A stretch of DNA of 24,000 bases from Bacillus mycoides (GTDB lineage: Bacteria > Bacillota > Bacilli > Bacillales > Bacillaceae_G): contig NZ_LXLV01000052.1 in the NCBI RefSeq assembly GCF_001757995.1, forward strand, positions 26,424 through 50,423. Direction: 5' to 3'. Positions 22,047-22,985 of the stretch are shown in pieces; position 1 is the stretch's first letter, and every line of letters starts with the position of its first letter. The notes beneath the pieces were generated by a model. It saw nothing but the letters and a program-made list of their open reading frames with translations. It was not told where the DNA came from and did no database searches. A program made the position numbers and the translations under genes.

Positions 22047-22517
22047 ATGATTCAAAAATTAATAGCAAACTCTTATCATACTGCTTTGTCTATTTTAAAC
22101 ATTCAAATTCCTGCTTACGAAATTGAAGCAAAATACATAAATAGTACGGCCATCCCCCGTTTATACGATACTGTAACGGATATTCAAAACTGCGATGAGA
22201 CATTCCATGGATATTTCCTGGAAAATTCACTCATTGGATTTATTTCTTTTAAAGTTGATGAAGATGTAGTTGATATCCATCGTTTAGTAGTCTCACCCGA
22301 TCATTTCCATAAAAGGATAGCAACGAAGTTACTACTTTTTATATTTGACATGTTCTCTTCTTCAAAAACGTATATTGTACAAACAGGGAAGAACAATACG
22401 CCTGCTCTTTCTTTATATAAAAAACATGGTTTTATTGAAATACAAGATATCGTGCTTCCTGATGGCGTAGTTTTGACATCATTAAAAAGACAGAATACAC
22501 AAAACAGTTTGACTTAA
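22047..22517 (+). CDS. GNAT family N-acetyltransferase
   Basis: GNAT core (IHRLVVSPDHFHKRIATKLL ... LYKKHGF). The ATG at 22047 is preceded by AAAGGAG. The alternative ATG at 21993 lies only ~15 nt after a TATAAT box and has no SD. Confidence 0.8.
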   Translation: MIQKLIANSYHTALSILNIQIPAYEIEAKYINSTAIPRLYDTVTDIQNCDETFHGYFLENSLIGFISFKVDEDVVDIHRLVVSPDHFHKRIATKLLLFIFDMFSSSKTYIVQTGKNNTPALSLYKKHGFIEIQDIVLPDGVVLTSLKRQNTQNSLT

Positions 22518-22537
22518 ATGTTTATTTATGTTATTTT
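22509..22537 (+). promoter_or_regulatory. candidate sigma-A promoter of the riboswitch unit
   Basis: TTGACT (22509-22514), a 17-nt spacer, then TGtTATTTT (22529-22537). The predicted start is a few nt before the aptamer P1. Confidence 0.5.
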
Positions 22538-22549
22538 TTACTTTATAAA

Positions 22550-22691
22550 ACCTTTTGCTGAGTCCAAATTTTGGAGCGGGGGAACCATTTATGTAGCTTT
22601 TTGCTACTTGGGGCGAATCTTTTTTAAGTAGGGACACTCTCACTTCCCGAGTCCGACAGCTAACCTCGTAAGCGTAATGGGAGAGGAAGGT
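22550..22691 (+). promoter_or_regulatory. c-di-AMP riboswitch aptamer (ydaO-yuaA class)
   Basis: Conserved blocks appear in the canonical order:
- GCTGA
- GAGCGGGGGAACCA (22574-22587)
- GGGGCGAATC (22610-22619)
- GTAGGG (22628-22633)
- CCCGAGTCCGACAGCTAACCTCGTAAGCG (22646-22674)

P1 pairs 22550-22556 with 22685-22691. Confidence 0.85.
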
Positions 22692-22718
22692 GCTTTTTGC
22701 CTATGTTACACAGTATGC

Positions 22719-22778
22719 CTCCTTAGTTATAAATATGGGAACGATACCAATTAAAAACCTATATTTATAGAAAAGGAG
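22719..22778 (+). promoter_or_regulatory. long hairpin sequestering the sORF Shine-Dalgarno sequence
   Basis: CTCCTTAGTTATAAATATGGG (22719-22739) pairs with CCTATATTTATAGAAAAGGAG (22758-22778). Of the 21 positions, 19 pair, including two G-U. The 3' arm ends in the AAGGAG SD. Confidence 0.5.
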
Positions 22779-22787
22779 AAATGTATA

Positions 22788-22931
22788 ATGTTACGTTTAT
22801 CAGATCATGCAATAAAAATGATGGAGCAAAGACTTCGACTAGAACAACACCGCACATATCAAGCAAATAAAGTTGTAGATAACTTACATCACAAATACTT
22901 CTTTCAGCATATTTTCCAGCCAAAAAGATAA
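22788..22931 (+). CDS. small ORF, 47 aa (MLRLSDHAIKMMEQRLRLEQHRTYQANKVVDNLHHKYFFQHIFQPKR)
   Basis: AAGGAG lies 9 nt upstream of the ATG. The TAA stop is followed 16 nt later by a strong terminator. It is not in the ORF track because it is under 60 aa. I recognise no family. Confidence 0.5.
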   Translation: MLRLSDHAIKMMEQRLRLEQHRTYQANKVVDNLHHKYFFQHIFQPKR

Positions 22932-22946
22932 GTACTGACCTTTAAC

Positions 22947-22985
22947 AAAATACAGCGTACACTTTTTCGGTGTACGCTGTATTTT
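22947..22985. terminator. bidirectional intrinsic terminator
   Basis: A perfect 16-bp stem pairs 22947-22962 with 22970-22985 around a 7-nt loop, with A/T-rich ends on both sides. Confidence 0.85.

Follow-up and report, generated by a model that had tools for sequence, protein, structure and literature searches.

The published outputs of riboswitches that bind cyclic di-adenosine monophosphate (c-di-AMP) are K+ and osmolyte transporters and cell-wall enzymes. In the kimA (ydaO) and ktrAB (yuaA) leaders of B. subtilis and in the kdp leaders of B. thuringiensis and B. anthracis, these riboswitches act by transcription termination (PMC6488665, PMC11302148). For a c-di-AMP riboswitch of Thermoanaerobacter pseudethanolicus, a study that also describes a pseudoknot for this aptamer class proposed that the pseudoknot sequesters the Shine-Dalgarno sequence (SD), which lies in the pseudoknot 3' strand, and represses translation; support from a green fluorescent protein (GFP) reporter was reported, and this translational switch was contrasted with the terminator type of B. 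subtilis (PMC11963983). Here, a 24,000-nt stretch of Bacillus mycoides DNA (assembly GCF_001757995.1, contig NZ_LXLV01000052.1, positions 26,424 to 50,423 of the forward strand) was analyzed, which is referred to as the window and on whose numbering all coordinates are given. It harbors a unit that is most likely autonomous and monocistronic and whose sole cargo is a 47-codon gene behind a c-di-AMP riboswitch. The parts of this unit that carry the argument are listed below, including a short leader open reading frame (ORF) and the small ORF (sORF) that forms the cargo; dN/dS denotes the ratio of nonsynonymous to synonymous substitution rates.

22546-22690, + strand: c-di-AMP riboswitch aptamer of the ydaO/yuaA class (RF00379), assigned with the Rfam covariance model
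22679-22692, + strand: aptamer 3' tail GGGAGAGGAAGGUG, an SD mimic with complementarity to the anti-SD; the pseudoknot strand GAGAG occupies 22681-22685
22703-22726, + strand: putative leader ORF MLHSMPP* (ATG TTA CAC AGT ATG CCT CCT TAG), codons 6-7 of which are the anti-SD
22719-22739, + strand: 5' arm of the hairpin, with the anti-SD CUCCUU at 22719-22724 and then the inner stem, from folding and covariation
22758-22778, + strand: 3' arm of the hairpin, including the SD AAGGAG at 22773-22778, from folding and covariation
22788-22931, + strand: sORF encoding the basic 47-aa micro-protein MLRLSDHAIKMMEQRLRLEQHRTYQANKVVDNLHHKYFFQHIFQPKR, with the SD AAGGAG 9 nt upstream of the ATG and a dN/dS of ~0.06

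With the kimA, ktrAB and kdp leaders the unit shares the aptamer class RF00379, its place at the start of a sigma-A transcript and the expectation that the ligand-bound state is OFF. In contrast to these leaders, no intrinsic terminator follows the aptamer and an SD-sequestering hairpin lies ~30 nt downstream of it, while the cargo is a 47-aa protein without a known family and not a K+/osmolyte transporter or a cell-wall enzyme. With the T. pseudethanolicus riboswitch, in which a ligand-induced pseudoknot is proposed to hide the SD and turn translation off, it shares an SD-like pseudoknot 3' strand followed by a start codon, and this precedent supports the pseudoknot strand as the regulatory pivot. 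However, in T. pseudethanolicus the SD within the pseudoknot strand belongs to the regulated gene, whereas here the ORF next to the strand has 7 codons, and the cargo follows only after 98 nt and has an SD of its own, locked by the anti-SD that ends the leader ORF, which would amount to a relay with an extra step.

The reading that we favor, with a probability of about 0.6, is a translational OFF switch that pivots on the 3' strand of the pseudoknot and in which the ligand would turn expression off. The SD of the sORF would be locked in a long hairpin with the anti-SD (CCUCCU), and the purine-rich strand GGGAGAGGAAGGUG would be the pivot. With c-di-AMP bound, this strand would be held in the aptamer pseudoknot and the hairpin would stay shut, while at low c-di-AMP the strand would be free and the hairpin would be opened by one of two routes or by both. 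In the first route, the free strand would act as SD for the 7-codon leader ORF and recruit ribosomes, which would run onto the anti-SD and terminate within the 5' arm, probably slowly at Pro-Pro-stop; a terminating ribosome would cover most of the 5' arm and thereby melt the hairpin. In the second route, the free strand would pair directly with the anti-SD. For the lineage of the window the first route appears to be the more likely one.

The initial annotation of this DNA, which was made from the sequence alone, had recognized a ydaO-class aptamer. Comparison with the covariance model bore this out: the match to RF00379 scored 96.7 bits (gathering score 38, E 4.6e-22) and covered model positions 1-134 of 134, with no aptamer pair marked as non-canonical. 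Scores in the related loci L026, L028, L029, L030, L031 and L032 were 82-102 bits, and a compensatory change from A-U to G-C was observed in one of the aptamer hairpins (alignment columns 51/61). The covariance model thus establishes the class of the aptamer, and a response of the unit to c-di-AMP is inferred.

Conservation of the sORF was analyzed in a set of B. cereus-group loci that was taken first (29 loci, 28 distinct nucleotide versions) and that included loci of B. manliponensis, B. cytotoxicus and B. pseudomycoides. Nearest to the window were Bacillus sp. MYb209 (97.5% identity) and B. hominis, and a 38-nt stretch at the 3' end of the aptamer had exact matches in 25 species-representative genomes, none of them from outside the B. 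cereus group. The 47-codon frame, found at 22788-22931 with its AAGGAG SD as first annotated, was unbroken in 29/29 loci. Among the 28 distinct versions, 10, 6 and 38 sites (of 47 each) were variable at codon positions 1, 2 and 3, respectively, and the pooled dN/dS was 0.06 in frame vs 2.3 in the other two frames. In most of these loci the similarity to the window stops at the stop codon of the sORF, and the genes downstream differ between species.

Distant homologues were collected by a profile search of 1.84 billion representative proteins, which gave eight matches only, and by a second, word-indexed search. They fall into two lineages. One comprises Bacillus sp. NPDC077411 and several metagenome contigs (P0020, P0025, P0027, L054/L055), with an sORF 49-59% identical to that of the window, and the other is Bacillus sp. 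165 (P0023), with 36% identity. In both, an RF00379 aptamer (82-95 bits) and an SD-burying hairpin lie 5' of the sORF, and the sORF is followed, as in the window, by a terminator, the sequence of which is unrelated to the one found there. Cross-clade dN/dS of the sORF was 0.23-0.25. A GNAT acetyltransferase gene, the upstream neighbor in the window, is retained in the B. cereus group and in the NPDC077411-like clade and is missing in Bacillus sp. 165, where the neighbors on either side differ and the upstream one is a Hydrolase_2 gene; what is conserved as a unit is therefore the riboswitch with the sORF and not the GNAT gene with the sORF. The substitution pattern identifies the sORF as a real protein-coding gene under purifying selection, and the distribution over these lineages indicates that the riboswitch-sORF module is older than the B. 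cereus group. The initial annotation had pointed to conservation of the peptide as one of the checks, and in these loci the riboswitch always precedes the sORF, the frame is intact and synonymous changes dominate.

Two further ways of explaining the unit have to be weighed against these data. It might mainly be a regulatory RNA, either a trans-acting small RNA, as the initial annotation had offered for a riboswitch-derived transcript, or a dual-function RNA with the sORF in a secondary role. Trans-acting RNAs derived from riboswitches are exemplified by SreA/SreB of Listeria and EutX of Enterococcus, and a short stand-alone transcript with a promoter and a terminator of its own would suit such a role. 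However, the distribution of the variable sites over the codon positions (38/47 at position 3, 10/47 at position 1, 6/47 at position 2) together with an in-frame dN/dS of 0.06 indicates selection on the protein and not on the RNA sequence, and both length and frame of the ORF are kept in lineages at 36-59% amino-acid identity, so that a mainly regulatory RNA is very improbable. The other possibility, also raised at first, is a decayed leader in which a former gene of normal size was deleted and 47 codons remain. Some local decay is suggested by the frameshift in the adjacent methyltransferase gene (see below). On the other hand, all 58 loci from four lineages have an ORF of 47-49 codons directly followed by its own terminator behind the riboswitch, with different genes downstream, and a larger gene behind the riboswitch was found in none of them. 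Given the intact frame, the strong purifying selection on the sORF and this synteny, the decayed leader can be dismissed as barely conceivable.

The sources name the product of the sORF only as 'hypothetical protein'. Many gene callers miss it, and several gene calls either continue beyond its stop codon or join it with a GTG frame lying upstream. This GTG-initiated ORF (22690-22770, + strand) starts in the aptamer tail and was rejected as a candidate gene because it is not conserved; it has 14-80 codons, and its frame and end shift with strain-specific indels. In some strains the indels put it in register with the sORF, resulting in fusion calls of 79-84 aa (P0003, P0006, P0007, P0013, P0024), which look like a systematic mis-annotation of the sORF. 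Initiation at GUG 22690 is nevertheless possible.

The second pillar of the argument is the hairpin. The 21-position helix 22719-22739/22758-22778, proposed at first to bury the SD, was recovered when 22717-22780 was folded: CUCCUU pairs with AAGGAG, followed by a 2x2 internal loop and 13 bp. Its free energy is -19.6 kcal/mol (z = -5.99), and 0/200 dinucleotide shuffles folded as well. In the four lineages the inner stem has four different sequences, with free energies of -16 to -23 kcal/mol and z-scores of -3.8 to -6.0, and AAGGAG is paired with CUCCUU in all of them. For covariation, 22 distinct hairpins were aligned to a structure that was written down from the fold of the window. Standard pairs occupied 93.8% of the cells, compared with 43-65% when the 3' partners were slid by 1-3 columns, and two-sided (compensatory) changes were found at six hairpin pairs (24 cells). 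The covariation score was 0.279 vs 0.117 +/- 0.013 in shuffles, and 0/500 shuffles reached 0.279. Pairing, covariation and shuffles together indicate that the SD-sequestering helix is a selected RNA structure.

Other predicted long-range structures did not hold across the lineages. The minimum free energy of the whole leader was not better than that of shuffles (z = -0.97), and global folds were therefore given no weight. An 11-bp helix with 3 G-U pairs between the P1 3' strand plus linker (22668-22678) and sORF codons 1-4 (22790-22800) was obtained with RNAalifold and is kept in B. cereus sensu lato; it is broken in B. manliponensis and, by reading the sequences, in the NPDC077411-like clade, and probably arises where CGUAA happens to face the codons UUA-CGU. 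Bacillus sp. 165 has another complementarity of 5 bp (CGUCU:AGACG) at these two sites. An extended hairpin base formed by the leader AUG region and the sORF start region was predicted in the lineage of the window and not in the other clades.

A scan of 22300-23200 for terminators detected a single terminator-like site, which lies 3' of the sORF (22947-22985), and none between the aptamer (22690) and the sORF (22788), as had been supposed from the sequence. The hairpin 22719-22778 is followed by AAAUGUAUAAUG and not by a U run. Likewise, no terminator was found between aptamer end and sORF in L027, L056 and L032; the + strand matches upstream of the sORF in L027 and L056 lie inside the aptamer, and L032 has zero. 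The proposal of the initial annotation that control proceeds by SD sequestration and not by termination is supported both by the missing terminator upstream of the sORF in every lineage and by the hairpin covariation. The riboswitch might nonetheless act on the transcript, by Rho-dependent termination, by non-canonical termination at the U run 22694-22698 or through RNA decay, with the SD hairpin constitutive and serving low basal translation or mRNA stabilization. The characterized c-di-AMP riboswitches of Bacillus terminate transcription (PMC6488665, PMC11302148), a U5 run directly follows GGUGC in most lineages, and in the lineage of the window folding predicts a closed hairpin for either state of the aptamer tail. 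Against this stands that a terminator-like hairpin with T run is lacking from the aptamer end to the sORF in the window, L027, L056 and L032, and that B. manliponensis has a degenerate U run (CUUAUCACC / CUCAUCACC) in an otherwise intact module. As a terminator tail, the run 22694-22698 was rejected, since no suitable stem lies 5' of it and it is degenerate in B. manliponensis. Control at the level of the transcript is thus decidedly unlikely.

If the switch acts on translation, the strand that links aptamer and hairpin becomes central. The pseudoknot of the aptamer joins a loop CUCUC (within GGGACACUCUCACUUCCC) to its complement GAGAG in the tail, and both are invariant in 28 aligned sequences. 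The tail mimics an SD and is predicted to bind the 16S rRNA more strongly than the SD of the sORF: its predicted duplex with the 16S 3' end has -16.4 kcal/mol in the window vs -9.5 kcal/mol for the sORF SD, and across lineages the corresponding values are -13.7 to -17.4 and -9.5 to -13.1 kcal/mol. The tail can also pair with the anti-SD, with a predicted duplex of -9.9 kcal/mol in the window and of -7.6 to -11.5 kcal/mol across lineages. A candidate anti-anti-SD therefore exists in the pseudoknot 3' strand of the aptamer, as judged from complementarity and predicted energies.

Downstream of this strand lies the leader ORF, which begins at ATG 22703 behind the SD-like GGGAGAGGAAGGUG and extends into the 5' arm of the hairpin, in which the SD of the sORF is hidden. 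It was found in 58/58 evaluable loci, in 24 distinct nucleotide versions with the general form M-L-x-x-hydrophobic-P-P-stop. Its ATG is invariant while positions -4, -2, -1 and +4 vary, codon 2 is TTA, CTA or CTT and always encodes Leu, and codon 5 is represented in the 7-codon forms by nine codons, all for Ile, Leu, Val or Met. The stop alternates only between TAA and TAG and lies at 22724-22726 within the 5' arm, in the unpaired internal loop. No indels occur inside the leader ORF, though they are present just upstream and downstream of it. With this conservation as evidence, the leader ORF may be translated, and, overlapping the anti-SD, it probably takes part in control. Leader ORF and sORF share their first 7 nt, ATGTTAC (22703-22709 and 22788-22794), and both start with Met-Leu; outside the B. 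cereus group the agreement is no longer exact, the NPDC077411-like leader having ATGCTAC.

Pro-Pro-stop is a slow context for termination. In the translational attenuation of the ermC type, a ribosome is stalled by the antibiotic during elongation of the leader peptide; here as there, a short leader ORF extends into the 5' arm of a hairpin in which a downstream SD is sequestered, and a paused ribosome would free this SD. The difference is that the input here would be riboswitch-gated initiation of the leader, with Pro-Pro-stop as a plausible pause site only. The mgtA leader of Salmonella includes a Mg2+-sensing riboswitch and thus, like the present locus, combines in one leader a riboswitch and a short ORF with consecutive Pro codons, the translation of which remodels the downstream RNA. 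The proline-codon-rich leader ORF in question is mgtL, for which a part of elongation factor P (EF-P) and the proline codons has been described (PMC6460261). Unlike the present locus, mgtL controls transcription elongation through alternative stem-loops and Rho in a Gram-negative host, whereas here the output would be exposure of an SD and the Pro codons themselves are the anti-SD.

Several observations weigh against the translational switch that we favor, or against parts of it. Partition-function folding of the leader was performed with the aptamer tail free or blocked, with the probability that the SD is unpaired, P(SD unpaired), as readout. In the window this value was ~0.04 with the tail free or blocked alike, and in Bacillus sp. 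165 (L032) it was within 0.02-0.04 and unchanged by blocking of the tail. As the values are equal in both states, direct switching is not predicted in these two lineages, and the hairpin alone, being predicted closed in both states, fails to explain switching in the lineage of the window. The SD-likeness of the tail is general to the aptamer class, the Rfam consensus ending in GaGaGgaaaa, and is thus by itself no evidence for the leader ORF. Moreover, the SD core AGGUG sits just 3' of the five pseudoknot pairs, so that its occlusion by the folded aptamer is an assumption, and the spacing from GGUG to the leader AUG (~10 nt) was judged longer than optimal. The leader of Bacillus sp. 165 is MLYNTSPYE*, without Pro-Pro-stop, although it nonetheless crosses the anti-SD and ends inside the 5' arm. 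Substitutions in the free codons of the leader are only weakly codon-like, and four such codons are too few for a convincing test of periodicity. Within the NPDC077411-like clade the sORF has a dN/dS of 0.24-1.1, calculated from very few substitutions. Finally, a literature search found no mention of the locus or of the peptide, and nothing on c-di-AMP riboswitches linked to small ORFs.

The folding results bear as well on a pure RNA switch of three strands, the model put forward in the initial annotation. Here, the pseudoknot strand, free at low c-di-AMP, takes the anti-SD and releases the SD, the ligand returns the anti-SD to the SD, and the small ATG...TAA frame is an untranslated by-product of CCUCCUUAA. 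The duplex of tail and anti-SD is predicted at the above energies in all lineages, and in the NPDC077411-like clade (L054, L056, L058) P(SD unpaired) fell from 0.49-0.62 with the tail free to 0.03 with the tail blocked. On the other hand, in the lineage of the window and in L032 the value is 0.02-0.04 in both states, so that of the mutually exclusive anti-anti-SD pairing anticipated at first a candidate strand was found, the pseudoknot 3' strand, while the predicted ensemble of the window's lineage did not switch. The pairing of tail and anti-SD is without covariation, both strands being nearly invariant. In addition, a switch of RNA strands only leaves unexplained why ATG 22703 is invariant in 24 versions, why the length of the frame is fixed, why the Leu codon changes only synonymously and why the stop is kept at unpaired positions. 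We therefore place this model on the unlikely side.

Carried to its end, the translational OFF switch can be worded as a relay of two steps, which we offer tentatively and hold to be possible rather than probable. In the first step, c-di-AMP would gate initiation on the Pro-Pro-stop leader through the SD hidden by the pseudoknot; in the second, the slowly terminating ribosome on the anti-SD would unlock the micro-protein, and c-di-AMP signaling in the B. cereus group would gain a new effector in its K+/osmotic branch.

The peptide has 47 residues, an isoelectric point of 10.3 and a grand average of hydropathy of -0.94. AlphaFold2 predicted a single helix of residues 6-42 (mean predicted local distance difference test score 84, from a shallow alignment), and residues M1, R3, E13, Q14, E19, Q20, K28 and Q44 are invariant in all lineages. 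That it belongs to no recognized family, as first noted, is in line with searches of Pfam-A and NCBIfam, which gave 0 families at E up to 0.1; a Pfam scan at E up to 10 gave chance matches only (PF24769, PF16630), a profile search of the PDB only GFP variants (E ~1), and a Foldseek search of the single-helix model against the PDB 0 matches. The description as a basic, His-rich peptide fits the B. cereus group, where it has 5 His, and does not extend to the family, the homologue of Bacillus sp. 165 having 1 His. The N-terminus MxxLSD presumably resembles that of B. subtilis Sda. Sda, the KinA-inhibiting sporulation checkpoint peptide (PF08970), was considered as a relative that would link the peptide to DisA and sporulation, and found no support in Pfam, the PDB profile search or Foldseek. 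Our guess is a small cytosolic binding or regulatory protein.

The remaining features of the unit are its putative promoter and its terminator.

22509-22537, + strand: sigma-A-type promoter from a consensus scan, with -35 TTGACT, a 17-nt spacer and the extended -10 TGtTATTTT
22947-22985, + strand: intrinsic terminator, a 17-pair stem and then a T run, adjoining the 3' end of the convergent methyltransferase pseudogene

The promoter is present where the initial annotation had placed it. In the consensus scan of the region, promoter-like matches were not enriched over shuffles. TTTGAC and ATGTTATyTT are kept across the B. cereus group, and the arrangement TTGnnn-17-TGTTAnnnT recurs in L058 (NPDC077411-like clade) and in L032 (Bacillus sp. 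165). The -35 box (22509-22517) shares sequence with the final codons and the stop of the GNAT gene. Between the GNAT gene and the riboswitch promoter the terminator scan of 22300-23200 detected no terminator, and transcripts of the GNAT gene may thus read through into the riboswitch-sORF unit. The hairpin terminating the ORF, at first described as a perfect 16 bp, has 17 pairs and may serve both the unit and the convergent methyltransferase gene. A permissive Rfam scan of 22400-24000 added only a chance SurA match on this terminator.

The position of the unit between a GNAT gene and a convergent pseudogene was likewise found as described. The convergent gene, for an S-adenosylmethionine-dependent methyltransferase (22986-23740, - strand), is split by a frameshift into ORFs of 89 aa and 178 aa. 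The frameshift lies near ...AKELWG / LDLSETQ..., and relatives align across the entire stretch with 1-3 gaps; the gene has either become a pseudogene or carries a sequencing error. On the - strand, two adjoining inverted repeats (ATCCCGC...GCGGGAT and AATCAGCGGGGGA...TCCCACTGATT) precede the methyltransferase start; they occupy window positions 23780-23870, for which Rfam gave no match even at E up to 1. On the other side, upstream of the GNAT gene, genes for an AI-2E family transporter (376 aa) and a small transglycosylase-associated membrane protein of the GlsB/YeaQ type (82 aa) lie at 20474-21909 (- strand), and an AI-2E transporter gene is also found upstream of the GNAT gene in B. pseudomycoides (L029). 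A full-length T-box leader (RF00230, 162 bits) is located at 19638-19846 (- strand); in related loci this position, upstream of the GNAT gene, is taken by a gene for a class-Ib tRNA synthetase (PF00579).

While the aptamer is known, there appears to be no earlier description of the micro-protein cargo or of a platform of the relay type. The locus presents a c-di-AMP riboswitch without terminator in Bacillus, in which SD mimic, anti-SD and SD follow one another in this order and are accompanied by a conserved leader ORF ending in Pro-Pro-stop, and it offers a compact system to ask whether a riboswitch acts through translation of a leader peptide. Its output would be of a different kind from those published: a dedicated, strongly conserved 47-aa protein, present in the B. 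cereus group (25 representative genomes at species level) and in a few related Bacillus, for which the riboswitch appears to be the sole regulatory input. If the relay is true, it would be of a type not described for any riboswitch, and the pause at the Pro codons could integrate the status of prolyl-tRNA or of EF-P with c-di-AMP. Since Bacillus uses proline as a major osmoprotectant, the relay would make the peptide a new effector on the K+/osmotic side of the pathway. Under the OFF switch, the peptide would be induced along with the genes for K+ and osmolyte uptake that are repressed by other c-di-AMP riboswitches, and its binding partner probably belongs to the response of the cell to low c-di-AMP.

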